IMG/VR virus record: IMGVR_UViG_3300000292_000161
Direction: 5' to 3' (one strand)
DNA length: 17,698 bases
Source of the DNA: a virus
Lineage: Duplodnaviria > Heunggongvirae > Uroviricota > Caudoviricetes
In this document: positions 1,329-17,698 of the stretch, one piece after another
How positions within the stretch are numbered: position 1 is the first letter of the stretch
Layout of the letters: each line of letters starts with the position of its first letter
Notes under the pieces: model-generated
What the model was told of the DNA's origin: nothing
The model's database searches: none
What the model saw: only the letters and a program-made list of their open reading frames with translations
Translations under genes and position numbers: made by a program

Positions 1329-1706
1329 TTAGACGTGCTCGGAGAACAGGTAGCGTGCCATCACTAAAACAATGCCAAAGACTTCAGCGAGGGTTCCCCC
1401 CATAAATAGGTTTATAACGAAATCACTAAAATGGAGCAGTTTTGCTCCAATAAGGACAAAAATCCCATTCATAACTAATAGCTGGCCTATCAGAATGCCG
1501 ATAAACCACCGAGCAAACATTTTTTTCAGTTTTGTGTCTGTTTTTAAATCTTTTGTTTTTGCACGCTGATGGGCTTTGGCTGGATCCTTATCATTTAGAT
1601 GTGTGAGGGTTTTTGCTGATGGAGATGAGCCAGAGGCTGGTTCACCTCTGGCTTGTCTTGCCGCTTGCTTTAGTTTTTCAGATATAGCGTAAGATCTAGA
1701 CGTCAT
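1329..1706 (-). CDS. small membrane protein (polar/basic N-terminus, two C-terminal TM helices)
   Basis: 125-aa ORF; ATG at 1706 lies 3 nt after the TGA of the upstream ImmA-like gene (coupled). Hydrophobic segments FIGILIGQLLVMNGIFVLIGA and GGTLAEVFGIVLVMARYLF. Confidence 0.6.
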   Translation of the reverse strand: MTSRSYAISEKLKQAARQARGEPASGSSPSAKTLTHLNDKDPAKAHQRAKTKDLKTDTKLKKMFARWFIGILIGQLLVMNGIFVLIGAKLLHFSDFVINLFMGGTLAEVFGIVLVMARYLFSEHV

Positions 1707-1709
1707 TAC

Positions 1710-2198
1710 TCATCGAAGCCCTAAATTCTTTAGGCGATAACGTATAGCATCATCGGATACACCAAAATAGGAAGCCATCATTACTGGTGCATATCCTGCA
1801 TTGTTGAGGCGTCGAACCTCTTTTTCTGGCATGAGAAGACATGCTGCAAAGTTATTGGCGAATATTTCTTCGCTGTCTACACCTTGGCTTGCCAGTTTTC
1901 CGCGGTAATCAACAAACTCATATTCAAGTGGCTGACCGTTCTCAGTTCGTTTGACGTAATGCCCTAACTCATGCGCACACGTAAATCGTTTGCGCACGTT
2001 ACTATCATTACGATTGAGTATGATTACTGGATCTTGTTCTGGCTCTTTCAGCAATGCGCCTGAAACATCATCATCAAGCGTGGTTTCAACAACATCCAAC
2101 CCTAACTCATTGGCAATCCATACTGGATCAACCGGGAATTTCCTATCGCCCCAGATATCTTTCAAGAGGGCATGTGCAGATGTATTCGACATGTTCAC
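1710..2198 (-). CDS. ImmA/IrrE-family (DUF955, COG2856) zinc metallopeptidase
   Basis: 162-aa ORF with HEXXH (FTCAHELGHYV) followed by the family-typical ANNFAACLLMP. Strong SD AAAGGAGGTGAAC immediately before the ATG at 2198. Confidence 0.85.
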   Translation of the reverse strand: MNMSNTSAHALLKDIWGDRKFPVDPVWIANELGLDVVETTLDDDVSGALLKEPEQDPVIILNRNDSNVRKRFTCAHELGHYVKRTENGQPLEYEFVDYRGKLASQGVDSEEIFANNFAACLLMPEKEVRRLNNAGYAPVMMASYFGVSDDAIRYRLKNLGLR

Positions 2199-2949: not shown

Positions 2950-3142
2950 ACGAAATTGGTGTTTTGCTGTGGCAGTGATATCAGAAAAATCTTCCTGTTT
3001 CACATAAAGCGGATATGCGCGTACTGTAACGGCCCCATCAACGGGGAGCGGATTTGAAATCCCGACCCAAGCTATGTACCAAATGCCATGTCTTGGATAT
3101 ATGATGATTGCCATTCTAAACAAAGCTAAAGGGAGGGTTGGT

Positions 3143-3518: not shown

Positions 3519-5636
3519 CTAGTCATTATCTGGATCATTAGATAGCCAAGTAATGATGCCCAGTCTGGCGATGGTCCGTTTTTCCTGTTCAGGAAGAGAG
3601 TTAAAAAAACTCTTCCATTGAGGGGAGCGCCTGATACGTGAATCAACAATGTGCCCAGGCGCTTTTCCGTGTAGATTTTTTACTGCGCTCTGGAAGGCTG
3701 GCGAGGCAATTAATTTATCCGCAGCATCAGCCGCCCCTGCTCCACCAGCTAATCGAGCTTTACTCGCCAATCTTGCTCCAATATCAGCCCCAGCAATGGC
3801 TCCAAGCGATCCAAAATGAGCGCCTACCATCGTGCCTATTTTTTGAATGTGTTTTGCTGCTAGTTCGTATGGAGCTGTTACCCGATTAAATCTGTTTACA
3901 AACTCATTCAGCTTACCAGTAGATATTTCATGCGCTTTAGCATTTTTTATTGCTCTGGCAACTTTGTATACATCATATAGTCCGCTCATTGTTTCTTTTG
4001 GCAAATGTTCAGCCAAAGTCTTTAGCTGTCCACTGTGTTGCAAGTTTTGCCACCAATCTGCAAAGCCAGATGGATTAAAGTCGGCCCCACGCTTCCCAGA
4101 GGAAAGCATATCTCTTAATGCTGTTCCTACTAGCTCCCTTCGCAATGTTCTTGATGGAGTATTTTGCATAATCTCACGAAACCCTCTCGCATCACCTTTT
4201 GCCATAGATTGAAGAGAATTCGTTACTTTATACGCTATATCCCCATTAAGTGTTTTCCCGCGAAGATTTACCATTTGCCTTTCTAAGTTTTTTCTCATAG
4301 CTACAAGGCGTTGTGCGACTTCGAAATCTCGCAAGTATCCAGTATTGGATAAGACAGATTTTTGGTCTTCAGCTAAAGCTCCATATAGTCTTGATAGCGC
4401 TTCTTTATCAGCATCTTTGTATGGCCCCTGCTTTTTATTTAGGGCATCACCAACTAAACGCCTTTGCCTGTTTAAATTTGCATACGTTAGGATGCTATCT
4501 GGGCCGGGGTTTATTGCTGTAAAAACTCGCTTTTCTATTGGGTCAAGATTATCCCACCCTCCTAAATCATCAGCGATTTTTTCCAGCATAGTGCTTGTGT
4601 TATTTGCTTCGACTTTTGTTCTTGGTGATAGAGCGGAATCAACACGTTTATATAACTGATCACTACGGTTTTTTAGTGCTTCCATTCTACTATTTATCTG
4701 ATAAATATATTTTTCGCTCATAGCTAACGCATCTGGCGCACCAGCAACATCATCGATTATCTTGTCAGCACTAGAGGCTAATTCGCTTATTGCTTTATCT
4801 TCTTGAGCTTTTAACGCTGATCCTGTCCGTGACTTTAGGGCTTGCTCTACAGCTTGGTATTGCTCATTTCCTGATAAATGAGAAGGAAGAACTGAATCAA
4901 CATGAAGCCTATTTGCAGCCTCAACAATTTCTTTCTGAGGTTTTAGATCTAGCCCTTCAAGCGAAGAGGCAAGATTTGGGTTGCCTTGTGCAGATAACTT
5001 ACGAATTTTCTCTTCGGCAGGAGTAATCCCCTCAATATCTGGAATCGAAGAAACATTCTTCTTGGTTAATTTCCCAGCTATTTTATTAATTGCAGGGCCA
5101 GCAAGTTCGGCTACAGGGCCAGCCACAGCGCCAATAGCAGCGCCGGAAGCAACATCGCTATTTGTTCCATTGGCTACAATAGCCCCTTCTCCAGCACCAA
5201 GCCCTACGGCGGCAGCCAGTCTTGCCGCCCCTTTGGGAACCTGAGAAATAATCCCACCACCACTAACAAATGGCGCTGCTTGTCCAACGAACTCACCAAC
5301 ATCTTGTGCGGTTGATGGTTTTGCCGCTAACTTCTGCTGTAGAGACTGAATTGCGGCTTGCTCTTCTGGTGTCATATCCTGAAACAGGCCAACACCTTTA
5401 CCAACATCCATCAATCCACTGAGAACGCCATACATAAAACGGTCGAAACCGTTAGCATTATTAACAACATTTTCCTGTCTGGAATTTTCCTCTGGTGAAA
5501 CCAAAGGTGATTGCTGCTGTTCTGGTTGGGCATCAAGCACAAAACCATCAGGAAGCTGTGAACTATCAGGAAACTGTGAGTTATCAGGTTGTTCATCGAG
5601 CACAAAACCTTCCGGTAAGATTACATTTGCTGCCAT
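3519..5636 (-). CDS. hypothetical 705-aa protein, repeat-rich N-terminus, Gly/Ala-rich low-complexity tracts, C-terminal glycine-zipper-like segment
   Basis: ATG at 5636 with AGGAA 7 nt upstream; overlaps the upstream gene by 16 nt. N-terminal repeats LPEGFVLDEQP / LPDGFVLDAQP; C-terminal GAHFGSLGAIAGADIGARLA; no Walker or nuclease motifs seen. Confidence 0.8.
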   Translation of the reverse strand: MAANVILPEGFVLDEQPDNSQFPDSSQLPDGFVLDAQPEQQQSPLVSPEENSRQENVVNNANGFDRFMYGVLSGLMDVGKGVGLFQDMTPEEQAAIQSLQQKLAAKPSTAQDVGEFVGQAAPFVSGGGIISQVPKGAARLAAAVGLGAGEGAIVANGTNSDVASGAAIGAVAGPVAELAGPAINKIAGKLTKKNVSSIPDIEGITPAEEKIRKLSAQGNPNLASSLEGLDLKPQKEIVEAANRLHVDSVLPSHLSGNEQYQAVEQALKSRTGSALKAQEDKAISELASSADKIIDDVAGAPDALAMSEKYIYQINSRMEALKNRSDQLYKRVDSALSPRTKVEANNTSTMLEKIADDLGGWDNLDPIEKRVFTAINPGPDSILTYANLNRQRRLVGDALNKKQGPYKDADKEALSRLYGALAEDQKSVLSNTGYLRDFEVAQRLVAMRKNLERQMVNLRGKTLNGDIAYKVTNSLQSMAKGDARGFREIMQNTPSRTLRRELVGTALRDMLSSGKRGADFNPSGFADWWQNLQHSGQLKTLAEHLPKETMSGLYDVYKVARAIKNAKAHEISTGKLNEFVNRFNRVTAPYELAAKHIQKIGTMVGAHFGSLGAIAGADIGARLASKARLAGGAGAADAADKLIASPAFQSAVKNLHGKAPGHIVDSRIRRSPQWKSFFNSLPEQEKRTIARLGIITWLSNDPDND

Positions 5637-6964
5637 TTTCCGTTCCTGTAAATGATTTTCTGACCAGTTTTAGGGTTGGTTGCCGTTGCGCCTTCTGATA
5701 TTCCTCCGGTTGCCGCTTTTGCCTGTCCAGTGCCAGCCTGTGATGTAGGCTGCCCGGAAACATCGTCAAATAGCTTCGCTTTCCTTCTTTCAAGGCTTTT
5801 TCTTAGCCCCTGAGGAATAGTTTCTCCATATGTATCGAGATACTCGTCAACCTGCTGGTTAAACTGCTGCCCCATAGCATTGGCGTTGATTTTTGCGGCG
5901 TTAACAATGTTATCCTTTGCCTCCTGCGACAGGCCGTTTCCAGCATTAAGCTGGTCTATGTATCCTTTGATTTGTCCCCATATGCCATCAGACCGCATTA
6001 CCTGAACCTGTTCGCCTTCACGAACGACTGACTGCGGGTCAAGAGATTTCATGTAGTTGAAGATAATCCCAAGTTGGGCAGCGCCAGTATTTACCTTGCT
6101 AAGGGCTTGCAGAGAGTTTGCCGCCGCTCTGACAGAGTTATAATTTTTGCCAAAATTGGTAATGTCAGAATTTAATCCCTTAATTAAGTCTGCTGACGGC
6201 TTACCTTTTTGCCCCAGCTCCATTAGCTTCAATCCCATCTCATCTGAGTGAATTTGTGCTCGCTGAGCCCTGTCTAGTTGAGCGTTCTGGATATTTGCCC
6301 ATCCTCTCGCGTTCTCCATGTCAGCCTGACGCATACTTTCATCCAGTCGCCCTTGCTCAAGTCGACGACCTTCCATTTGATCTTTGATATCGAAATACTT
6401 CTCATGACCGAGAGAAAACAGCGCCAGATTACCTGCGAAATGCTGGAAGCCCTGCGGGTCATTAACCTGCATTTCAGCAATAGTTTCTGGAGGGATACCT
6501 AAACGACGCATCTCCTGCTCATTATCCATCATGAACCTGCCAAATGCGCCCTGACCAAGCGATGAGGCTACCTGTGCTTTGAGCGCCAGATTGCCATAAT
6601 CATCCCTTTGAGCATCATCGACATAACTCATCCCTTTACGGACTTCCTCAAACTCTTCTGGGAATGCTGTAATAAGATTACGCATCTGCTCCCTGTCACC
6701 GGACGCATAAGCATCTGCATAACCTTTCTGGAATGCCGCTTTACGTTCCTGCTGTTGCTGCTGCTTATAAATGTCAGCAACTCCAGCCAGACCACGAAGA
6801 CCTGTCAGAGCAACGTTATTTGCACCTGAGCGAGCCAGTTCATTGTTTTCGCGGATCAGACCAAGCGTTGCGTTAATGTCGCTTGCCTTTGGCGCATTCT
6901 CATTTTGCGCACCGATGCCAGCCAGAAAACCACCAGAATTAATACCCTGTTGCCACGTAGCCAT
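5621..6964 (-). CDS. hypothetical 447-451-aa Gln-rich, probably coiled-coil protein
   Basis: ATG at 6964, 4 nt after the TAA of the 57-aa gene (in-frame GTG at 6976 is the alternative start). Contains poly-Q KQQQQQERK and many Q/E/R heptad-like stretches; no catalytic motif recognised. Confidence 0.8.
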   Translation of the reverse strand: MATWQQGINSGGFLAGIGAQNENAPKASDINATLGLIRENNELARSGANNVALTGLRGLAGVADIYKQQQQQERKAAFQKGYADAYASGDREQMRNLITAFPEEFEEVRKGMSYVDDAQRDDYGNLALKAQVASSLGQGAFGRFMMDNEQEMRRLGIPPETIAEMQVNDPQGFQHFAGNLALFSLGHEKYFDIKDQMEGRRLEQGRLDESMRQADMENARGWANIQNAQLDRAQRAQIHSDEMGLKLMELGQKGKPSADLIKGLNSDITNFGKNYNSVRAAANSLQALSKVNTGAAQLGIIFNYMKSLDPQSVVREGEQVQVMRSDGIWGQIKGYIDQLNAGNGLSQEAKDNIVNAAKINANAMGQQFNQQVDEYLDTYGETIPQGLRKSLERRKAKLFDDVSGQPTSQAGTGQAKAATGGISEGATATNPKTGQKIIYRNGKWQQM

Positions 6965-6968
6965 AAAT

Positions 6969-7142
6969 TTACCCACGTCCAGTTAAAGTGTAAGCCAGCG
7001 CCTTATCCATTAATCCCCGAGCAATTTCGTGGATCGTTGGCGCAACTCCTACCTCTGATTTTTTACGCTGCTCCTCCTGAATTTTCTTTATCGCTTCCAT
7101 TTGCTTCTCACTTATCAATACTGGCTTTACTGAAATAGCCAT
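6969..7142 (-). CDS. 57-aa putative DNA-binding regulator (possibly ribbon-helix-helix), first gene of the cargo operon
   Basis: The 100-aa ORF trimmed to the ATG at 7142, preceded by AAGGGGGG. Sequence MAISVKPVLISEKQMEAIKKIQEE..TIHEIARGLMDKAL; function inferred from size and position only. Confidence 0.5.
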   Translation of the reverse strand: MAISVKPVLISEKQMEAIKKIQEEQRKKSEVGVAPTIHEIARGLMDKALAYTLTGRG

Positions 7143-8879: not shown

Positions 8880-11307
8880 TTAAAAAACATCATAACCCCC
8901 CATACCGATCAGACGGGCAAACGCAGCCTGTAGAACTCCGACCTCTGGTAGTTCGTAGAACACGCCATTCCCTCGGTCTGGTCTTCCATGCTTCACCAGC
9001 CCCATTTGTGCAAGTGATTTACCCAGTAGTGATCTGGCAGCTGGTTCTTTAAGCTTTTCCCCACGCTCAAGCGACCACGCTACAAACCGACTAACCATAT
9101 CCTTTGCAAACAAACGGACTTCGCCATTAAACGGAGGTTCATTGATTAGCTCGCCATAAAGAAACAATTCAACGCCAGACAGCCCCAGCAAGATTTCTTC
9201 ACGTAAGGCATCGGTCTGTGGCGCTCGTTGAGGGTCAAAACCTGAGAGATCCACCCCTTTAAGATGCCAAAGCAACTTTGCGGCACCGCCATCATTAAGC
9301 CAACTGTACAGCCGATCAAAATACTCCCGGCTCTGTGCTTTTTCAGGAGATGGCTCAAGCACGAGATAGCGGCGCTCTCTTATCCCTGCCTGTAATACCT
9401 GTGTGCTGTTACTGGCAAATATCAACCGGGCAAAATTCGGCATTGGTTCAGCATCAATTCCCTTGCGCTCAAGGTTAAACGTCGGTTCGCTAATAATCGC
9501 TTTAAGTCTGTCAGCTTCAGACGGCTTGTGGATCGTCACTTCGTCAGCAAATACCAGTAGCTTGTTAGCAAGTATTGAATTGAAGCGCCCTGAAATATGT
9601 CCCGCCCCGTTAATGTGGGCGGCGTACTGCCCCAGTATTTGCAGCAGCGGTTTAACCGTTGTGCCTTTCCCTGTGCCCGGGACAGATTTCATCACGATTG
9701 CCACGGACGGTTTTTCATCAGGCTTTTGGATAATGTGCGCCATCCACTGGATAAGATATTGGTATGCCTCTTCATTACCGGCACAGACAACCTGCAACAG
9801 GTGATTAAGGTATACCGTGCAATCTCCTTCAATTGGTTCCAGTGCCAGCCCCTCATACAGATTAAAAACATCGTCAGGGCATTTGTCTGGTACTGGATAA
9901 AATCCTACGCCTCCTGGCTTGTAGTTCTTCCCACTCCATGACAGCCACGCCGATCCCGCCAGCTTTCTGGCGACTCTCGGTTTATGATGAAAATAATGCT
10001 GAAATTGTGATAAATCCTCGAAAACGTGCGATACACCGCCGGTTTGAGAAGGCTTTAGCGACACCACCTTGTGTTTCCCGCCGATGGTGACATGCGTAAA
10101 CGTCCGGTTGATTTCTTCGAGGACAGCAATTTCATCATCGCTTAACACCTCGCCAGAACTGATCTCATTCAGCGCCCCGACTGACTGTTTGTGATTTTTC
10201 ACCTGCGCCCCTTTCCCCCGTGGCTGGTACATCGAATCTTTAAATGCTGCTGTGGCTGCCGCCAGCCCGTGTTGTTGGTGATAGTCGTTCCAGTCGGCTT
10301 TATAGTCAGTCGGTGGCAGAGACACCCAGCCAGCTACGGAAATAGCGGCCCTCTCTGCGGCATCTTTCCCCGTGTTGATCCCTCCACTTTCGGAGTTTCC
10401 TTGCTGGTGATCGTTATCTGCGGCAATGATGATTTGTGCCTGTGGATATGTTCTGCGCATGACTTCCGCTACTGGCAACAGGTTGCCAGCGTCGATTGCT
10501 GCCACTGTCATTGCGTCAGGGCGAATTAAATGGCACGACAGGGCGGTAGCCACCCCCTCAGCAATTATGNNNNNNNNNNNNNNNNNNNNNNNNNNNNNNN
10601 NNNNNNNNNNNNNNNNNNNNNNNNNNNNNNNNNNNNNNNNNNNNNNNNNNNNNNNNNNNNNNCTGTGCGTTTATGGCGTGATATGCCCCTCGCTTTGCTG
10701 AACCTGTCAGGAGTCTTTTTTCACCATGTGAGGTAATAGTCTGTGCTGCTGTAACTGCGCCGGATTTATCCACCAGCGCCAGCAACAGAGATCCATCGGG
10801 CAACACAGGGAATGTAAAATCACCTACCCCTTTCGCAACCAGATAATCAGATTTGCCGTTTACAGCCTTTCTGCGCATGTCATCAAACTGACGGGAAAAC
10901 GTATCCCGTCTTTGTTGTTCGTCCTTCTCTGCCCTTTTCAGGCGCTCCTGTTCGCGTCGCTGGCGCTCGGTTTCCAGTTGTTCCCGTTTCTGGCTGGTGG
11001 CTTCTGGTGTTTCCGTTGTCCGGTAATCAATACCCAGAACATCAGCGGCAAGCAGCGCCGCCTCTGTTGTGTCGCAGTTATTTACGCGTTTAATTAAATC
11101 CAGCCCATCACCAGCGCCGCACTGATTACAGATGAAGCTACCGCGCCCGTTGTCATCGAACCGGAATCGGTCTTTGCCCCCACATGCAGGGCAGGGAGCA
11201 TGACGGCGCGGAGAGTCAGGGACATTTATGTTCAGGCAGCCCAGCACATGAGGCCAGTTGTTTTCAGACGCACTGATAACCTGACGGATAAGATCAATGT
11301 TTCGCAT
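8880..11307 (-). CDS. P4-type DNA primase/helicase (Zn-ribbon + TOPRIM + D5-like P-loop NTPase), interrupted by an assembly gap
   Basis: N-terminal piece (10558..11307) has CPACGG...CNQCG zinc ribbon; C-terminal piece (8880..10553) has IIIAADND (TOPRIM-like) and P-loop VPGTGKGTT. ATG at 11307 with SD ACGGGGG. Frame across the gap is uninformative. Confidence 0.85.
10570..10662. other. assembly gap (93 N) inside the primase gene
   Basis: Run of n characters read directly from the sequence. Confidence 0.99.
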
Positions 11308-11319
11308 TCTGGCCCCCGT

Positions 11320-11922
11320 TTAGTGCGTCACTGGTGCTTCTGGGATGCCGTTTTCGTTTAGTTCGGCAATAAAGCTGTTGTGAAGATCGGCAAGCACTTC
11401 TCGCCCAAACGAAGTGAGTGTTCCCTGTTCGACATCGAACATGTTGCTGTAAAAAATGATGGCATTCTTTGTTCCGACATCAACACCATATTTCTCGATC
11501 ATTGCGCCCTCAATGTTGTTTGCCATAGCGAGGCGCTCTGCTACTGGATACAGCGGCATGGCGACGATGCCATTGGAATAAACAGAAACCACGGAATGAT
11601 TGCCACTGTCATCAATAATGCTGACGGTGCCGTTTTCCTTTCTCATTTCATTGATTAATGCTGTTGCTATCAGCCAGCGCCACATAATCACGTGATGCTG
11701 TGATGTGTAATCGAAATATCCCTGGTTGCCGCCACTGGCAATAGCGAGATGTATAAACATGCCTTCATCTGGTTTATCGTCATAATCCCCGGCATCCAGA
11801 CGATTTACGGCATCAATATATGAGACGGTCTCAACGCGTTCTGTCATGCCATTGTTGCTGCGGTGCATGATGTTTACGCCGTCAGGCGTTGCTTCTGCAT
11901 GGAAGGTTAAGAAATTATTCAT
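11320..11922 (-). CDS. hypothetical 200-aa protein
   Basis: 235-aa ORF trimmed to the ATG at 11922 (MNNFLTF), with SD GGCGAGG and an ATGAATAA stop/start overlap with the upstream 73-aa gene; 12 nt upstream of the primase start. Confidence 0.7.
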   Translation of the reverse strand: MNNFLTFHAEATPDGVNIMHRSNNGMTERVETVSYIDAVNRLDAGDYDDKPDEGMFIHLAIASGGNQGYFDYTSQHHVIMWRWLIATALINEMRKENGTVSIIDDSGNHSVVSVYSNGIVAMPLYPVAERLAMANNIEGAMIEKYGVDVGTKNAIIFYSNMFDVEQGTLTSFGREVLADLHNSFIAELNENGIPEAPVTH

Positions 11923-12136
11923 GTTTCGCCTCGCCTGAATGATTCTGTAACTCATATTTGCCCAACAATTCGTCCGCTTCCTGAATAGCTTCTGGTACGC
12001 CATTGAGCAGTGACATAACCGCGCCAATCATTAACTTGTCTCTGTTGCTTGGGCTGGCCCCTTCAAGCCAGAACCCTAAAACAGTCTGAACCTGTTCGAT
12101 GCGACATTGCGCTTCAATGAGCTGGATGTTGGTCAT
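11915..12136 (-). CDS. hypothetical 73-aa protein
   Basis: ATG at 12136 with SD GGAGAG 8 nt upstream; ATGA overlap with the preceding gene. Confidence 0.6.
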   Translation of the reverse strand: MTNIQLIEAQCRIEQVQTVLGFWLEGASPSNRDKLMIGAVMSLLNGVPEAIQEADELLGKYELQNHSGEAKHE

Positions 12137-12396
12137 TTCGCACTCTCCACATCGATTAAACTGATATCTATCAGGGAGGTAACTTTTTGTAGCCAGCTAT
12201 TGATTACTGTCGCCTGTTCCCCTCCCACCGATGGAAGAATCTCATTCATCACATGAACCAGACCTGTGCGCGCTCTGGTAAGCCGTTCAGTCGTGCGATC
12301 TGCAAGAGTGAATGTGTCTGGATATGGCTCTTCACGGCTCAGCAATGATTCAATTTCCAGCTCACACGGATGACGATAAATTAAGTTGATATTCAT
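12133..12396 (-). CDS. hypothetical 87-aa protein
   Basis: ATG at 12396 with SD GGGGGTGA; ATGA overlap with the preceding gene. Confidence 0.6.
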   Translation of the reverse strand: MNINLIYRHPCELEIESLLSREEPYPDTFTLADRTTERLTRARTGLVHVMNEILPSVGGEQATVINSWLQKVTSLIDISLIDVESAK

Positions 12397-12587
12397 TTTT
12401 CACCCCCAAGAATTACCAGCTCTGCACGGGCATCGTTAACCAAAGATGAGCACGCTTTAATCGCATCCACGACATCAGTAGCGTCCATTTCTTCAGCCGA
12501 AAGACTGACAGCAACCAGGACAGCCGCTGCTTGCTCGATTAATTGAAGTGCGGACGTAAGGCGAGGGGTATTAATTGAGTTATTCAT
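12393..12587 (-). CDS. hypothetical 64-aa protein
   Basis: ATG at 12587 with SD ACGGGGG; overlaps the end of the preceding gene. Confidence 0.6.
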   Translation of the reverse strand: MNNSINTPRLTSALQLIEQAAAVLVAVSLSAEEMDATDVVDAIKACSSLVNDARAELVILGGEK

Positions 12588-12798
12588 TGGTTGCCCCCGT
12601 TTTTACTGGCATTTCGCCACCTTCCAGCAGGAAATGAACGTCACGAACGGCGAGATCCAATATCGCGAGTAACGCCTTCAGTCTTTCGTCTCGTGAGGGA
12701 GAGTTGCTCACCAGAATGTCGTTAATCACTTCTGTCAGTGTGATGATCTGGCTTGTGCGTTCGAGGGGATCCATATGCACATCGTAGTTTTTAATCAT
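12580..12798 (-). CDS. hypothetical 72-aa protein
   Basis: ATG at 12798 with SD GGAGGTG 5 nt upstream; this is the 3-prime part of the 355-aa open frame. Confidence 0.5.
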   Translation of the reverse strand: MIKNYDVHMDPLERTSQIITLTEVINDILVSNSPSRDERLKALLAILDLAVRDVHFLLEGGEMPVKTGATNE

Positions 12799-12985
12799 GT
12801 GCCACCTCCATGCGGATACGACCAGCAAAAAAGCAGATGTGATCGCGCACCAGAGAACGGCGAGCATCGCGTTCAGACTCGGCAGCAATATGATGAATTT
12901 TGGCGGTAATTGTCGGGCAATCGCGGCGAACTGCGGCGATAATCCAGATAAATTGCGTTTTTTGGGTAGGGGTAGTAGCCAGCAT
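12791..12985 (-). CDS. hypothetical 64-aa protein
   Basis: ATG at 12985 with strong SD AAGGAGG 7 nt upstream and good enterobacterial third-position codon usage; different frame from the 355-aa ORF it lies inside. Confidence 0.6.
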   Translation of the reverse strand: MLATTPTQKTQFIWIIAAVRRDCPTITAKIHHIAAESERDARRSLVRDHICFFAGRIRMEVAHD

Positions 12986-13647
12986 GTGGCAGCCTCCTTC
13001 AGATAGCAGGTTACGCTACCACCGGAAACGCCAATTTCGCTGGTGGTAGCCCAGACAGGGTTGGCGTAACCGGCTCTGAAGGATACCGGCGCTTCCGAAG
13101 AAGCCCCCGCCTGAGCCACCATTGATTGACAAAGGCGCTGGATTATACACCAACGCCCAAAAAATGGGTGAGTCAGACCTACGACATAAAAAAAGACGCT
13201 CGGCGCGTCATATGTCGCCTTCAGAATTTTCAGGACGCCAATCCCGGCACCCGTTTTATGAGGTGCCTTATAACCATAAACCGTGTTGCCGCATAACGGC
13301 AAGCTCTTTTTTATGGACTCCGAAAACTCACTATTGGAAGAACCAGAAGCACAGTACATCGCGCTCATTTCGTTAACGTCACGCGCGTGGACGAAGGTTT
13401 TTGTGGAGTCACTACACGAGCAGAGAAAGCCATCTACGACCAGAAATTCTCTGGCATAGCCGCTGACCTTCTCAACGCTAACACCATCGACCGTAATTTC
13501 TGACATAGTTAAGGCATCCGCTCCTACCACCAGCAAATGATAAACTTTGCTTGTATCTGCTGTATTAATGTCTGACTTTGCTGTCATATTGCTGGATTTT
13601 GGCGACATACCAGCCAGTGAAAATGTCTTCTTCTGGACGGGTATCAT
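12986..13647 (-). CDS. hypothetical protein, start well supported, 3-prime end undetermined
   Basis: ATG at 13647 with SD GGAGGT and ATGA overlap with the upstream gene. Coding-like to about 13010, but the frame has no stop until 12580, so a frameshift or sequence error is possible. Confidence 0.4.
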
Positions 13648-13823
13648 TGGTTAACCTCCGCGAACTCCTTCATGAAACGCGCCAGCGGTTGTACGCATGG
13701 CGATTGATACCCGTCGCGATAAAACGTCACTCGGTTGTGAGACACGCTTTCGACAGTAACGAGTGCTCCGTGGGCATCTTTGTAGCGTTTTTGTGGTTGT
13801 GGTATTCCTGTTGGCTTAGACAT
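13644..13823 (-). CDS. hypothetical 59-aa protein
   Basis: The 88-aa ORF begins with TTG; more likely start is the internal ATG (MSKPTGIPQ) with GGAGG 6 nt upstream, overlapping the stop of the antirepressor-like gene. Confidence 0.5.
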   Translation of the reverse strand: MSKPTGIPQPQKRYKDAHGALVTVESVSHNRVTFYRDGYQSPCVQPLARFMKEFAEVNQ

Positions 13824-14649
13824 TGAGCGCCTCCAGACGCTTGGCGAGCCAGCGTTGCGACAGGTGGGTGAGTTCTCCTTTGCGCTGCTCATATTCCATG
13901 CCCATATCAATTAACGTGATATTGGTGCTTTCGAGATATGAGAGGTGCTCAAGCTGTTCTGCGTTCATATGGTCGCGAGGTTCGCCAGAATAGCCATTTA
14001 TCCGCGCCCACTGCTTAGCAGTTAGCCCACCAAGAACGATACGAGAAATCATATTGCTCTCGTTTGTGTAGTGGTGTTGCTGCGTCGTTTTCCCCTGCTC
14101 GGCACGGGCCATGTTCAGCGCATCGCACATTGGCTTAAAGTTGTTTGCGGCACTGATACGGGCTTTTAGCTGGCGACGATAGCGGGCGGCGATTTCAGGC
14201 ACGGTACGCTGTAATTCTTCCTCGCACTGGATGAAATAACGACGGATAGCGCGACCCTGATCATTGCGTTCGATCATTGCCAGTTCTTTCGCCATTCCGA
14301 CACTTAACAGATAGTCTTTGCCGGGTCTGCCAGAGTGCTTAATCTTGCTGTAAGCCGCGCCATTCGGGCTTTTCCCCAAATTTGGGGAAATTGTTTTATG
14401 GACTGAGTAATCGTGCCCAATGGTGAAGTCATATTCAGAGATGCGATCAGTGATCCATGTAGAGAAGTCTTTTCCCACGCCCAACGCTTTGTGTAACGCT
14501 TTTGCGCTAACAATATTGGTTTCACGCCCACCTATATGACCAGAAATAACCGGGACAATTGCGGCAAATTCATTACCGTTAATTGTGCCCAGAGAGGCGT
14601 TCAGATGAGGGGCGGCCTCAGAAATTAATCTGCTTTTTTCGATGTTCAT
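13816..14649 (-). CDS. phage antirepressor-like protein (Ant/KilA-type DNA-binding domain), tentative
   Basis: 277-aa ORF, ATG at 14649 with SD GGAGA. N-terminal region IVSAKALHKALGVGKDFSTWITDRI resembles antirepressor/Bro-type domains; assignment is by pattern only. Confidence 0.7.
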   Translation of the reverse strand: MNIEKSRLISEAAPHLNASLGTINGNEFAAIVPVISGHIGGRETNIVSAKALHKALGVGKDFSTWITDRISEYDFTIGHDYSVHKTISPNLGKSPNGAAYSKIKHSGRPGKDYLLSVGMAKELAMIERNDQGRAIRRYFIQCEEELQRTVPEIAARYRRQLKARISAANNFKPMCDALNMARAEQGKTTQQHHYTNESNMISRIVLGGLTAKQWARINGYSGEPRDHMNAEQLEHLSYLESTNITLIDMGMEYEQRKGELTHLSQRWLAKRLEALNV

Positions 14650-14661
14650 TTTTAGTCTCCG

Positions 14662-15093
14662 TTAGGCGGCGTTAAACGCGTCCGGGTAGAGTTTCAGAAT
14701 GTCGGCAATTTCCTGCTGAGAAAGTCCGTTGTGATCATTTATGTTCGCAAGATGGTTAACATGAGTGATCACTTTCAGAACATCACCACGGCAGGAGAAA
14801 CGGTAGCGAAGGTGTGTTCCGATACCATCAGGATTCTTTTCGTCGATACGCTCCAGAGTGATTCCAAGCTGGCGTTCTAACTCTGTTGCATAGTTACGAC
14901 CAGAAGACAGACGGCAGTAGCGAAGAATGTCATTTTCTGTCCATCCCTCTATACCAGTACGCAGCATATAGACTCGGGCACGATGCTTTTTCGGTGTGCG
15001 CTTTGGTGCTTGAAGGGATTTTGTAAGGGGCGTAATATCAGATACGCGAATATCTGAATTAGCCGCCTGTAATGGGCGGTTTTTCTTTTCCAT
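14662..15093 (-). CDS. hypothetical 143-aa protein, possible winged-helix regulator
   Basis: ATG at 15093 overlaps the alpA stop by 1 nt (TGATG). No motif confidently recognised. Confidence 0.7.
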   Translation of the reverse strand: MEKKNRPLQAANSDIRVSDITPLTKSLQAPKRTPKKHRARVYMLRTGIEGWTENDILRYCRLSSGRNYATELERQLGITLERIDEKNPDGIGTHLRYRFSCRGDVLKVITHVNHLANINDHNGLSQQEIADILKLYPDAFNAA

Positions 15094-15311
15094 CAGGCCA
15101 CCTTCCCGCGGCGTTCTGCCAGCCAGTTATTAATTTCCACCGCATCAAACGCAGTCACGTTATCTGTTAGCTTCACTGGGCGTGGAAGAGTGCCATTTTT
15201 AACCCATCTATCAATAGTAGGCAGTGAAACACCTAGCAATTCCGGCATGCGAAAGCGACGGATGTATCCAGTTGTTGGGATAGCTGATGATGCTGGCTTG
15301 TGTGCTGTCAT
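15093..15311 (-). CDS. alpA: AlpA-family transcriptional regulator/excisionase
   Basis: 72-aa protein whose RMPELLGVSLPTIDRWVKNGTLPRPVKL matches the AlpA/Vis HTH pattern; first gene after a 470-bp AT-rich regulatory region. Confidence 0.85.
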   Translation of the reverse strand: MTAHKPASSAIPTTGYIRRFRMPELLGVSLPTIDRWVKNGTLPRPVKLTDNVTAFDAVEINNWLAERRGKVA

Positions 15312-15782: not shown

Positions 15783-16433
15783 TTAGTCGAGATCGTGGAC
15801 AGCTAATAAAGCCCGTGAGATTTTTTCTAGGAATGTGGCTTTTGCTATTCCTTTATGGGATATCCCTTCATCCTTGATTAAGGTTTCTATGTCACGGTAT
15901 ATAGCTGTGCGATTAGGTTTCCCATTTTGGATGTAGGAAGATGAGCCTGATTTTTTTATCAGCAGATGTACTATCAACCCCATCATTTTCATTGTCCCGT
16001 TTTCCTCATCCTGCTTTCTATGCTGCCCACGTCCGCTGCGGTTGGTTTCTTTGATGTAGTTTACTAACTGGAGTCCTCCAAGGTTTCGGGCTTTTTCTTC
16101 CCAGCCCTTGGTGCCACGCAAATCATCAATCGCTTCTGATATTTTCTGAACAATTATTTCTGGTGTATTTGTGTCAATAAATGGGTAAGAAGCTAAGAAA
16201 ATATCAAGGGCATGGCAAGGCTCGTCTTTACTAGTTTTTTCACCTCTGTACACCTTGATAGCTCTGGCAAGATGAGTTCTGACAAAATCGACATATTCGA
16301 AATTTTCCTCAGGCACATCGCTAATGCGCATAGATGGGTTTAGGCCAGCCAAGGCCACAGCCATTTCATGAGGGGTAATCGATACAGATGAACAAAGCCG
16401 TTCGATTGGCGATTTTCTCAAGATGTTGTTCAC
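15783..16433 (-). CDS. hypothetical 216-aa protein, AT-rich cargo gene coupled to the integrase
   Basis: ATG at 16433 is adjacent to the integrase stop (16430-16432). Visibly lower GC than the integrase; no motif recognised. Confidence 0.75.
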   Translation of the reverse strand: MNNILRKSPIERLCSSVSITPHEMAVALAGLNPSMRISDVPEENFEYVDFVRTHLARAIKVYRGEKTSKDEPCHALDIFLASYPFIDTNTPEIIVQKISEAIDDLRGTKGWEEKARNLGGLQLVNYIKETNRSGRGQHRKQDEENGTMKMMGLIVHLLIKKSGSSSYIQNGKPNRTAIYRDIETLIKDEGISHKGIAKATFLEKISRALLAVHDLD

Positions 16434-17698
16434 ATTTGCCTCCGGGCTTTATCGAATGGCGTTACGTTGTAGTCTTTCCCGCTTTCCAGTGCCACCAGCA
16501 GATCAGCCCACTGTGCCAGCGCAGCTTTACGCTCATCAAAATACTGATGGCGGTTATAAATCCCCTCCACACCCTTAATGCGATGATTGAGGCATCGTTC
16601 CGCTACGACAGGATCAACACCCAATGCTGCTAAATGAGTACGTGCGGTACGCCGGAAGTCGTGAATCGTGAAATTAGGCACATCCGGCATTTCGGCGCGA
16701 ACCTTAGCCAGTGCTACGGGTAAAGTGCTTTCCTGAATATGTGGGATCATTCTGTTTTGCATCTTCCTGGCTGGAAGCACCCATGCGCTATTACATGAAA
16801 AGGTGTGTAGCTCTCTCAACCATTCAACGGCTGGGGAAGGTAGAGGTATATCAATAGGGTCTCCGTTTTTGCTGCGTTCTTCCGGCAAATGCCATACCGC
16901 ACCATCTAAATCAAACTCTTCCCATCGTGCGGCGCATAACTCCATCTTACGAACGCATAGTGCCAGCAATAGCTTAAATGTCAGTTCGTTCTGGCGGCTG
17001 AATCCTTTTGCGGTGCGCATAGCCTCGAATAGCCTGATAAGCTCATCGCGAGTTAGCCAACGGTCGCGGGAAACCTCTTTACCACCAGCATCAGATACTT
17101 CAAACGCTGAACAAGGGTTTATCTCCAGAGCGTGGCGTTTTATCCCATAGTCAAAGATACGGCGTGCCCAGCGTAATACATCTGTTGCTATCGTTGGTGC
17201 TCCTCGGTCAACGATACCTTTCAACATGTCGTCAATGTGGCGTGGCTTAACGTCCTCTACCTTCATATGCCCAATGCAGGGGTTAATATCCTTATCAATT
17301 CTCCGGCGAAGGATATCGGGATGTTTCCATCTCGGAAGTATCTGGCGCTCGAAGTATTCGGAGGCCAGATCTGAAACACGCATGGCGTTTTTCTCAGCCT
17401 CCATTTTTGCCAGTGCTTCAGCTTTTCGTTCCTGTTTCTCTGCTGCTACGTCATAGCCAAGAGCAACTCTGGCTGACAGCTCTTTTGCTGTTTCTCTGGC
17501 TTTTGATAGTGACAGTTCGGAGTAAGAGCCTATAACCATAGCCCGCTGCTTTCCTGCGAGCTTATAGCGGAATCGCCAGAACGGGACTGTGTAGTTTTTG
17601 GGGTAGCAAATATAAAGGCCGTTGCCGTCTGCCTTGCCATCAAATCTGTCTCCCGCCTTTATCCATGCGCGGATCTGCATATCTGTGAGTTTTGGCAT
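16430..17698 (-). CDS. int: P4-family tyrosine integrase (site-specific recombinase)
   Basis: 422 aa, ATG at the window edge (17698). N-terminal arm-binding pattern (GKADGNGLYICYP...FRYKLAGKQRAMVIGSY) and C-terminal catalytic motifs (IHDFRRTARTHL, GIYNRHQY). Confidence 0.95.
   Translation of the reverse strand: MPKLTDMQIRAWIKAGDRFDGKADGNGLYICYPKNYTVPFWRFRYKLAGKQRAMVIGSYSELSLSKARETAKELSARVALGYDVAAEKQERKAEALAKMEAEKNAMRVSDLASEYFERQILPRWKHPDILRRRIDKDINPCIGHMKVEDVKPRHIDDMLKGIVDRGAPTIATDVLRWARRIFDYGIKRHALEINPCSAFEVSDAGGKEVSRDRWLTRDELIRLFEAMRTAKGFSRQNELTFKLLLALCVRKMELCAARWEEFDLDGAVWHLPEERSKNGDPIDIPLPSPAVEWLRELHTFSCNSAWVLPARKMQNRMIPHIQESTLPVALAKVRAEMPDVPNFTIHDFRRTARTHLAALGVDPVVAERCLNHRIKGVEGIYNRHQYFDERKAALAQWADLLVALESGKDYNVTPFDKARRQM

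Follow-up and report, generated by a model that had tools for sequence, protein, structure and literature searches.

We examined a 17,698-nucleotide (nt) stretch of DNA from a virus of the Caudoviricetes (IMG/VR record IMGVR_UViG_3300000292_000161), hereafter the window, and within it the interval between an AntA/AntB antirepressor-family gene (antA) and a primase-helicase gene; coordinates refer to the window unless another element is named. All the relevant genes lie on the minus strand, where they form a co-directional chain from alpA to the primase, with Shine-Dalgarno (SD) motifs and start/stop overlaps (Table 1). A sequence-only reading of this DNA had described, between the antirepressor-like gene and the primase, a chain of translationally coupled small open reading frames (ORFs) with SD sequences and ATGA or short overlaps, and this description is borne out: a GGAG/GGGGG-type SD lies 6-9 nt upstream of every ATG of the chain, and the successive junctions from the antA stop to orf200 overlap by 8, 4, 8, 8, 4, 4 and 8 nt (ATGA or ATGnnTAA). 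It had counted six to eight small ORFs of 59-200 amino acids (aa), and the small ORFs are indeed there, but one member of the chain is a 355-aa ORF that overlaps or nests two of the others. All the small ORFs display a codon periodicity in which the GC content of the first position (GC1) exceeds that of the second (GC2), and substitutions are in excess at the third codon position (positions 1/2/3: orf200, 19/15/44; orf87, 32/20/56 vs the related island L007; icd, 5/8/18); where divergence permits testing, these patterns support the small ORFs as coding. The same reading had found all of them to be without recognisable motifs, which does not hold, as there are matches to DUF4222 (88 bits), Phage_ASH (117 bits) and Icd-like (70 bits) models and PHROG matches for orf73 and orf200. 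It had also overlooked two structured RNAs, a promoter and a terminator inside the 355-aa ORF.

The interval is 100% identical to chromosomal islands that adjoin yicC in many uropathogenic Escherichia coli strains, and related versions are found in about 480 of 5426 complete E. coli genomes (~9%), with each protein of the chain being present on approximately 500 to more than 1000 public contigs. It shares 94% nucleotide identity over 3.8 kb (window 11322-15103) with EcCIMP1, the phage-inducible chromosomal island (PICI) of E. coli MP1 that is mobilised by the P22-like phage Kapi1 (Pick et al., ISME J 2025, PMC11773190), and has the EcCIMP1-like gene order of int, alpA, antirepressor, Ash, primase and P22-type DNA-transfer genes. 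Excision of EcCIMP1 and its transduction by Kapi1 at very low frequency have been shown experimentally, and the conserved core listed for it comprises the antirepressor, an "Ash family protein" and the primase; the paper describes neither an RNA switch nor a pac or packaging site (PMC11773190).

The isrK-C4 RNA tandem and its target sites

Two Rfam RNAs, isrK and C4, are encoded on the gene strand, both within the 355-aa ORF. This tandem is found in every related locus examined and in P4 itself, where its members are seqA and the CI RNA. When six elements are aligned, the P4 PLE region among them, the only invariant blocks upstream of isrK are GCTTGC and TATxGTT, which are 18 nt apart. The PLE-like constitutive promoter predicted here matches the consensus at 8/12 positions and was not listed by a strict promoter scan; from it, we infer a transcription start near 13266. 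A terminator scan places an intrinsic terminator at the 3′ end of isrK, with a stem at 13209..13195 that is followed by a T7 run. Relatives of CI and seqA in PICIs are detected by the same Rfam C4 and isrK models, as set out in a paper that also summarises the P4 eta/kil/CI/seqA mechanism (PMC10111431). IsrK has further been regarded as structurally homologous to P4 SeqA, and the RNA STnc1160 has been likened to the P4 CI RNA, a likeness that was proposed, not demonstrated (PMC4825925).

Two segments of the C4 RNA (positions 45-52 and 60-66) each have one complement in the leader and another downstream, such that b′ pairs with b1 in the leader and with b2, and a′ pairs with a1 in the leader and with a2. 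None of 5000 shuffled C4 sequences has two segments complementary to both flanks. We compared six immunity types, namely those of the window, of the related islands L005, L006 and L007, of an O157 P4-like element (L008) and of P4 (L009), and the pairings of C4 with the leader and with the downstream target recur at equivalent positions in every one of them, despite their differing sequences. The result is a three-way covariation, in which the b′/b1/b2 sets read CCUUCAGA / UCUGAAGG / UCUGAAGG in the window, CCUUGUAC / GUACGAGG / GUACAAGG in L005, CCAAUAAG / CUUAUUGG / CUUAUUGG in L008 and CCUGUGAA / UUCACAGG / UUCACAGG in P4; the a′/a1/a2 sites covary among the six types as the b sites do. The three-helix structure of C4 itself is likewise maintained, with 162/162 cells paired and compensatory changes in 12 of the 27 pairs, a result equalled by none of 500 shuffles, and the helix pairing collapses in slid registers. 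A further element, GGUGGUAGC (13023..13015, minus strand), has its complement in the 3′ arm of the stem that closes C4, GCUACCACC (13042-13050), and covaries with it in all six types, which suggests an alternative pairing in the unprocessed transcript. As the loop sequences differ among the elements, different immunity specificities are implied, and the six covarying loop/target sets constitute a ready panel of natural hetero-immune variants. From these sequence comparisons, we identify the centre of the chain as a predicted antisense-RNA immunity switch of the P4/P1 (immI-like) type.

Table 1. Positions of the genes, RNAs and sites discussed in the text (aa, amino acids; HTH, helix-turn-helix).
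Feature	Coordinates	Strand	Remarks
Integrase	17698..16430	-	
216-aa ORF	15783-16433	-	phrog_30524; between int and alpA
AlpA-type HTH protein (alpA)	15311..15093	-	
orf143		-	143 aa; between alpA and antA
AntA/AntB antirepressor-family gene (antA)	14649..13816	-	
DUF4222 gene	13823..13644	-	59 aa; Pfam PF13973, 87.7 bits
"Ash family" ORF (Eta-like)	13647..12580	-	355 aa
P22-type small-terminase gene 3 fragment	13393..13499	+	107 bp; antisense to the chain, in the N-terminal part of the 355-aa ORF
pac-like 22-mer GAAGGTTTTTGTGGAGTCACTA	13393-13414	+	16/22 positions as in P22
PLE-like constitutive promoter (predicted)	13302..13273	-	-35 TTGCCG 13302..13297; 18-nt spacer; -10 TATGGT 13278..13273
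isrK / P4 seqA-like leader RNA	13266..13189	-	78 nt; Rfam RF01394, 67.8 bits (gathering score 50)
Leader site a1 UUGGCGU	13241..13235	-	
Leader site b1 UCUGAAGG	13225..13218	-	
C4 / P4 CI-type antisense immunity RNA	13126..13039	-	~88 nt; Rfam RF01695, 79.9 bits (gathering score 45), model 1-87/87
C4 b′ loop UCCUUCAGA	13083..13075	-	
C4 a′ segment ACGCCAA	13067..13061	-	
seqC-like downstream target	13034..12993	-	Exact complementarity to C4
Downstream site a2 UUGGCGU	13034..13028	-	
Downstream site b2 UCUGAAGGA	13003..12995	-	Overlaps the GGAGG SD (12997..12993) of icd/kil
icd/kil-like gene	12985..12791	-	64 aa
orf72	12798..12580	-	72 aa, acidic
orf64	12587..12393	-	64 aa, acidic
orf87	12396..12133	-	87 aa, acidic
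orf73	12136..11915	-	73 aa, acidic
orf200	11922..11320	-	200 aa, Cnr-like; directly upstream of the primase gene
Primase-helicase	11307..8880	-	
Second pac-like site AGGAAGATTTTTCTGATATC	2993..2977	-	Intergenic

The read-through ORF and the proteins of the chain

The 355-aa ORF starts in an ATGA overlap with the stop of the DUF4222 gene, upstream of the internal promoter, and covers the pac-like fragment (see below), the promoter, isrK, C4, seqC and, in another frame, the whole of icd. It ends at the orf72 stop, with orf72 nested in frame at its 3′ end. Its match to the Pfam Phage_ASH model (PF10554; 117.2 bits against a threshold of 26; residues 124-232) corresponds to nt 13278..12952 and coincides with the isrK and C4 RNA genes, and the 197-aa Eta of P4 matches the same model with 82 bits. 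In all six immunity types, the isrK-C4 stretch can be read without a stop in one and the same frame relative to C4, the other two frames being closed; the long frame stays open through a non-homologous N-terminal segment in L007, through a 38+1-nt in-frame deletion in L006 and in EcCIMP1. Its codon-position GC content is nonetheless flat (0.43/0.43/0.50 and 0.54/0.54/0.53), whereas the neighbouring genes all have GC1 well above GC2. Substitutions in the RNA segment relative to L005 are spread over the codon positions of the 355-aa ORF as 28/24/28, and in the stretch common to icd and this ORF they fall as 5/8/18 in the icd frame and as 8/18/5 in the long-ORF frame. These patterns indicate that the ORF is selected for openness and not for its amino-acid sequence, and an ORF that is kept open without evolving as a protein is best described as an Eta-like "translate-through" anti-termination ORF.

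The precedent for such an ORF is eta of P4, whose start is said, in work by Forti et al. from 1999, to lie upstream of the constitutive promoter, with translational coupling to the gene before it. When transcripts come from the late promoter further upstream, translation of eta reportedly prevents the immunity-specific termination, and Kil is reportedly the in-frame 3′ part of eta, translated from the internal promoter. From Ghisotti et al. (in 1992) and Forti et al., the P4 immunity factor is likewise said to be an RNA, with Eta acting by being translated. In P4, L007 and L008, kil and the Eta-type ORF are both in frame C4+1. The window departs from this arrangement in that its icd/kil frame is C4+0 and its Eta-like ORF C4+1, and two extra nt before the icd ATG in the window, L005, L006 and EcCIMP1 account for the shift of icd out of the Eta-like frame. 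This frame-shifted eta/kil arrangement offers a natural way to ask whether translation is all that Eta-type ORFs require. Public annotations of the 355-aa ORF vary between "ash family protein", a pseudogene and a fusion named "Icd-like protein".

The 64-aa icd/kil product matches the Icd-like NCBIfam model NF033153 with 70.3 bits (cut-off 25) and is 40% identical to the C-terminal (Kil) part of the P4 137-aa ORF. The P1 and P4 members of the Icd/Kil family are cell-division inhibitors or killing factors, and by analogy the protein in the window is probably a division inhibitor. Its gene would be the first to be translated from promoter-proximal transcripts. Downstream of the switch, in the position of P4 epsilon and orf151, follow four ORFs with acidic products (pI 4.2-4.9). 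The ATG of orf72 overlaps the icd stop by 8 nt, and orf72 is called independently in public annotations. Scans of all ORFs against Pfam, NCBIfam, PHROGs and PADLOC gave nothing above threshold for orf72, orf64 and orf87; the hits of orf64 to TY-Chap1 (E = 0.006) and CARF (E = 0.005) were set aside as sub-threshold noise. The orf73 product matches phrog_20558 (E = 2.9e-9) and is identical to its counterpart in EcCIMP1 (WP_000181940.1). The AlphaFold2 (AF2) model of orf87 (predicted local distance difference test score, pLDDT, 84; helices 10-19, 31-57 and 59-86) predicts a generic helical hairpin and has no significant Foldseek match, and a search of PDB sequences with the orf87 and orf200 proteins returned only noise, a designed protein among it. 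A relationship of orf87 to P4 epsilon or orf151 was considered and rejected, as hhalign of the 87-aa family profile against both revealed no similarity; likewise, no epsilon or orf151 homologue emerged when all island ORFs were compared by BLASTP with P4 and related loci. From position alone, a helper-directed role of the four acidic proteins is plausible. The orf87 product is widely named "nicotinic acetylcholine receptor subunit beta" by PGAP/RefSeq, which is an evident propagated mis-annotation.

The last small ORF before the primase, orf200, matches phrog_1515 and belongs to a family of ~116 representative clusters, whose named members are from Enterobacteriaceae and are all annotated as hypothetical. 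Its confident AF2 model (pLDDT 92.7) comprises two beta-beta-beta/alpha-alpha-alpha units and found no fold match in PDB or BFVD by Foldseek (best E = 0.08, TM <0.2). A profile-profile comparison by hhalign of the orf200 family with DUF5375, the family of P4 Cnr, gave a probability of 92.1% (E = 6e-7) over 94 columns. This match covers columns 7-102 of 107, i.e., almost all of Cnr, if a 22-residue beta insertion is allowed, and the comparison with the single P4 Cnr sequence yielded 82%. Relative to Cnr, orf200 features an N-terminal extension in addition to the beta insertion, and it lies directly upstream of the primase gene, the same position as cnr in P4. We consider it fairly likely that orf200 is a distant homologue of P4 Cnr and a Cnr-like replication regulator; by analogy with Cnr in P4, its probable role is to modulate the primase/initiator. 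The primase gene itself appears as two ORFs in the window on account of 93 masked N (10570-10662), and identical genomes show it to encode one 783-aa DUF5906 protein.

A proposed P4-type control circuit and its alternatives

Among the closest parallels to this locus is P4, with which the window shares the tandem RNAs with their target sites at the same positions, the invariant promoter blocks, a long ORF in the same frame across the RNAs that is coupled to the upstream gene, a Kil/Icd homologue with its SD abutting b2, and the gene order alpA-like, eta/cI, small ORFs, cnr (here the Cnr-like orf200) and alpha (primase-helicase). Unlike P4, the window has three extra genes (orf143, antA and DUF4222) between alpA and the Eta-like ORF, and it lacks epsilon and orf151 homologues and the sid, delta and psu genes. 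Its Eta-like ORF differs from the P4 counterpart in length (355 vs 197 aa), in an unrelated N-terminal segment, in being out of frame with kil and in being nested with orf72 instead of kil; its primase is of the DUF5906 type, and its loop sequences are different. The immI region of P1 and P7 (c4, icd, ant) has an antisense RNA of the same Rfam family. According to Citron and Schuster in 1990, the c4 RNA is reportedly processed from the transcript that it controls, and two of its segments are said to be complementary to upstream and downstream sites, of which the downstream one covers the ribosome-binding site of icd, with icd being translationally coupled onward. In contrast to immI, the antirepressor gene of the window lies upstream of the switch and not downstream of icd, and the switch would control replication genes and small ORFs.

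The dynamics of the circuit can be projected from P4, P1 and the isrK-orf45-anrP locus of Gifsy-1 onto the sequence features, homology and covariation that were found in the window. In the uninduced state, the PLE-like promoter inside the long ORF would constitutively produce the leader, with most transcripts stopping at the leader terminator and those that read through being processed to the ~88-nt C4/CI RNA. C4 would then pair with a1/b1 and a2/b2, occlude the icd/kil SD and block icd/kil translation, leading to premature termination or polarity, such that the coupled orf72, orf64, orf87, orf73, the Cnr-like orf200 and the primase would stay off. Upon induction, transcription from a helper-responsive alpA promoter would enter from upstream, and ribosomes would be handed on via 1-8-nt overlaps from alpA to orf143, antA, the DUF4222 gene (whose ATG overlaps the antA stop by 8 nt and which closes the upstream alpA-orf143-antA segment) and the Eta-like ORF. 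Their passage over the promoter, leader, C4 and seqC would prevent RNA pairing and termination and thus allow expression of the downstream chain and the primase. EcCIMP1 is induced by its helper phage Kapi1; when the Kapi1 lysogen is induced with mitomycin C, the expression of alpA increases, and positive autoregulation by AlpA is likely (PMC11773190).

Several points weigh against this reading of the locus. Transcript ends, RNase P processing, Rho-dependent termination and ribosome read-through are all projected from the related systems. With icd/kil not nested in frame in the Eta-like ORF, the P4 model is not transferable unchanged, and an open alternative frame of ~65 codons across icd could have arisen by chance, which happens at roughly 4%. 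C4 could also be transcribed from a promoter of its own, as a perfect TATAAT hexamer (13147..13142, minus strand) follows the isrK terminator and precedes the C4 match by ~15 nt; the spacer with this hexamer is deleted in L006, so a dedicated C4 promoter, if real, would not be essential. The assignment of orf200 to Cnr comes from the profile-profile match alone, and the Pfam DUF5375 model (PF17345) itself misses orf200, even at E values of up to 10. Finally, the isrK RNA of Gifsy-1 activates rather than represses translation (PMC4825925), which makes the sign of any trans effect of the leader uncertain here.

The same Gifsy-1 precedent underlies one of the competing explanations, according to which the isrK-like RNA would work in trans, either by activation or by sponging up C4, and switch on icd and the chain under stress. 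The good Rfam isrK match agrees with this, as does the duplication of a2/b2 by a1/b1, through which excess leader could titrate C4. In Gifsy-1 of Salmonella, IsrK activates the translation of orf45-anrP, and the locus resembles the window in that a leaky terminator ends its isrK-family leader, a C4-like RNA region that is processed comes next, and the downstream genes are coupled (PMC4825925). However, the terminator in the window is followed only by ATG-TCG-TAG and not by an orf45-like short ORF, the downstream gene is icd-like and not an antirepressor, and the closest relatives in sequence and synteny are P4-like satellites, in which seqA is part of CI-dependent termination (PMC10111431). 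We regard such a trans-acting role as unlikely, and it would in any case be compatible with the P4-type explanation that we favour, not exclusive of it. A quite different proposal would take the 355-aa "Ash family protein" at face value, as a true regulatory protein that belongs to the Bro network (by its PHROG label, a transcriptional repressor) and to which the RNA matches are secondary. In its favour, the Pfam and PHROG scores are strong, and no relative has lost the open frame, even where the N-terminal segments are non-homologous or where 39 nt are deleted in frame. Against it, the Pfam domain has exactly the extent of isrK plus C4, and the substitutions are compensatory for RNA helices and three-way target pairing instead of being synonymous. 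Flat codon-position GC, the internal promoter and terminator and an N-terminal segment that is in part the antisense strand of a phage gene fragment further argue against a protein, as does the precedent of P4, in which the immunity factor is an RNA (summarised in PMC10111431). This makes a protein repressor a very unlikely account of the ORF.

The sequence-only reading had seen in the chain a set of independent small effectors, directed at helper interference, anti-defence or host takeover, which would entail no special regulatory architecture. It is right in that these are early-operon genes of a satellite, with an Icd/Kil family whose proteins act on the host and thus fit host takeover, and in that orf72, orf64, orf87 and orf73 are conserved, acidic and devoid of a family or fold match, and sit where P4 encodes epsilon, its helper derepressor. 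It falls short in that ~320 nt in the middle of the interval are taken up by the RNA genes, promoter and terminator that make up the switch, and the largest ORF is Eta-like and is not evolving as a protein. A PADLOC scan of all ORFs gave no defence-family match, and similarity to epsilon or orf151 was seen neither with hhalign for the 87-aa family nor with BLASTP of all window ORFs. Homology to replication accessory proteins, which that reading had named as telling against effectors, is reached part-way with the Cnr-like orf200 (hhalign 92%, E = 6e-7); the structure prediction and Foldseek comparison it had proposed produced models for orf200 and orf87 but no significant fold match. On balance, we judge an effector string of this kind to be somewhat unlikely, and consider it likely that the interval serves an EcCIMP1-like, P4-related E. 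coli phage satellite as its immunity-controlled early ("left") operon. The locus is a further example of the P4-type immunity-controlled early operon, largely ordinary except for a possible mimic of the P22 packaging site. The main value of this result is corrective: in RefSeq and Pfam, the switch appears as an "Ash family protein", in some cases as a pseudogene, and neither of the two RNAs is annotated.

P22-like sequences and the wider island

The antisense gene fragment in the N-terminal part of the Eta-like ORF is derived from gene 3 (small terminase) of a P22-type phage. It is ~85% identical to P22 nt 4-110, and the first base of the 107-bp homology is also that of the annotated 22-bp pac (nt 4-25), with the rest of gene 3 being absent. 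The pac-like 22-mer is the most diverged part of the fragment and matches the 12-bp core of P22 pac, AAGATTTATCTG, at 9/12 positions. The same positions (13393-13414) agree with the published pseudo-pac pattern at 16/17, but ~1.3 such matches per window are expected by chance, and the pattern is too degenerate for us to accept this agreement as evidence alone. The fragment is present in EcCIMP1, L005 and L006 and absent from L007, in which the same slot holds unrelated sequence; this variable segment of L007 is not recognisable as a terminase piece of another phage, with no blastn match in the phage collection and no family match. Nor was the island variant of pac found in a genuine phage gene 3, as all 11 exact matches in IMG/VR are relatives of the island.

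A second pac-like site is closer to P22, with 11/12 positions of the pac core and 13/14 with flanks, for which ~0.006 matches are expected by chance. It is identical in EcCIMP1 and other islands that bear ejection genes, and absent from the island of L007 and from Kapi1. The site sits in a conserved non-coding stretch, which is the usual place of PICI packaging sites. The ejection genes in question encode, in the window (3519-6976, minus strand), P22-type ejection proteins, namely a gp20-like (451 aa, Pfam Inj_translocase) and a gp16-like (705 aa, phrog_770) protein, which are 85-89% identical in nucleotide sequence to Kapi1_057/058. The gp20-like Inj_translocase and gp16-like genes are carried by EcCIMP1 and by the three fragment-bearing islands whose late regions were examined, with the L005 island and EcCIMP1 adding gp14-like and gp7-like genes, and no P22-type ejection-protein genes were found in the island of L007. 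Among the islands examined, both pac-like sites occur only in those that also carry P22-type ejection-protein genes.

We tentatively propose, as a possibility with a less than even chance, that EcCIMP1-like islands are dedicated satellites of podophages with a P22-type terminase and are packaged via pac-site mimicry (13393-13499; 2993..2977). The gene 3 fragment could alternatively be a recombination scar. Kapi1 has no segment homologous to that of gene 3 and a small terminase of the Sf6 type, which could explain the very low transduction frequency of EcCIMP1. If true, pac mimicry would identify the missing packaging determinant of the abundant PICIs that are without terminase and capsid genes ("type C"), and if the pac-like elements are functional, the packaging route and the helpers of EcCIMP1-type islands, which likewise have no terminase or capsid genes, become directly testable.

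Beyond the sequence that they have in common, the window element and EcCIMP1 display both likenesses and differences. They share the same gene chain, the Ash/Icd arrangement, the pac-like fragment, the identical 73-aa protein and P22-type ejection genes downstream of the primase. They differ in the site of integration, which for EcCIMP1 is at tRNA-Thr near proA/yagU and for the window element next to yicC, and in the integrase and alpA. The EcCIMP1 primase is of the TOPRIM/DUF927 and not the DUF5906 type, its immunity loops are of the L005 and not the window type, and the window lacks the PerC found in EcCIMP1.

Other parts of the island revealed some minor features. In the int-alpA region of two related islands, the Rfam int-alpA RNA (RF02996) replaces the 216-aa ORF of the window (L006, 7079-7145; L011, 4952-5019). 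At the far end of the island (1329-2198, minus strand), an ImmA/IrrE-type metallopeptidase (162 aa, Peptidase_M78) is accompanied by a 125-aa partner ORF, and the two could be a protease/regulator pair or a defence-type module. Closer to the ejection genes, 90 nt on the plus strand (2548-2637) are 79% identical to "terminase small subunit" genes of two Leptolyngbya/Plectonema cyanophages. This match falls in a small plus-strand ORF (2421-2723), which, judged by its position, may be the Xis-like alpA_1 HTH gene described in EcCIMP1.

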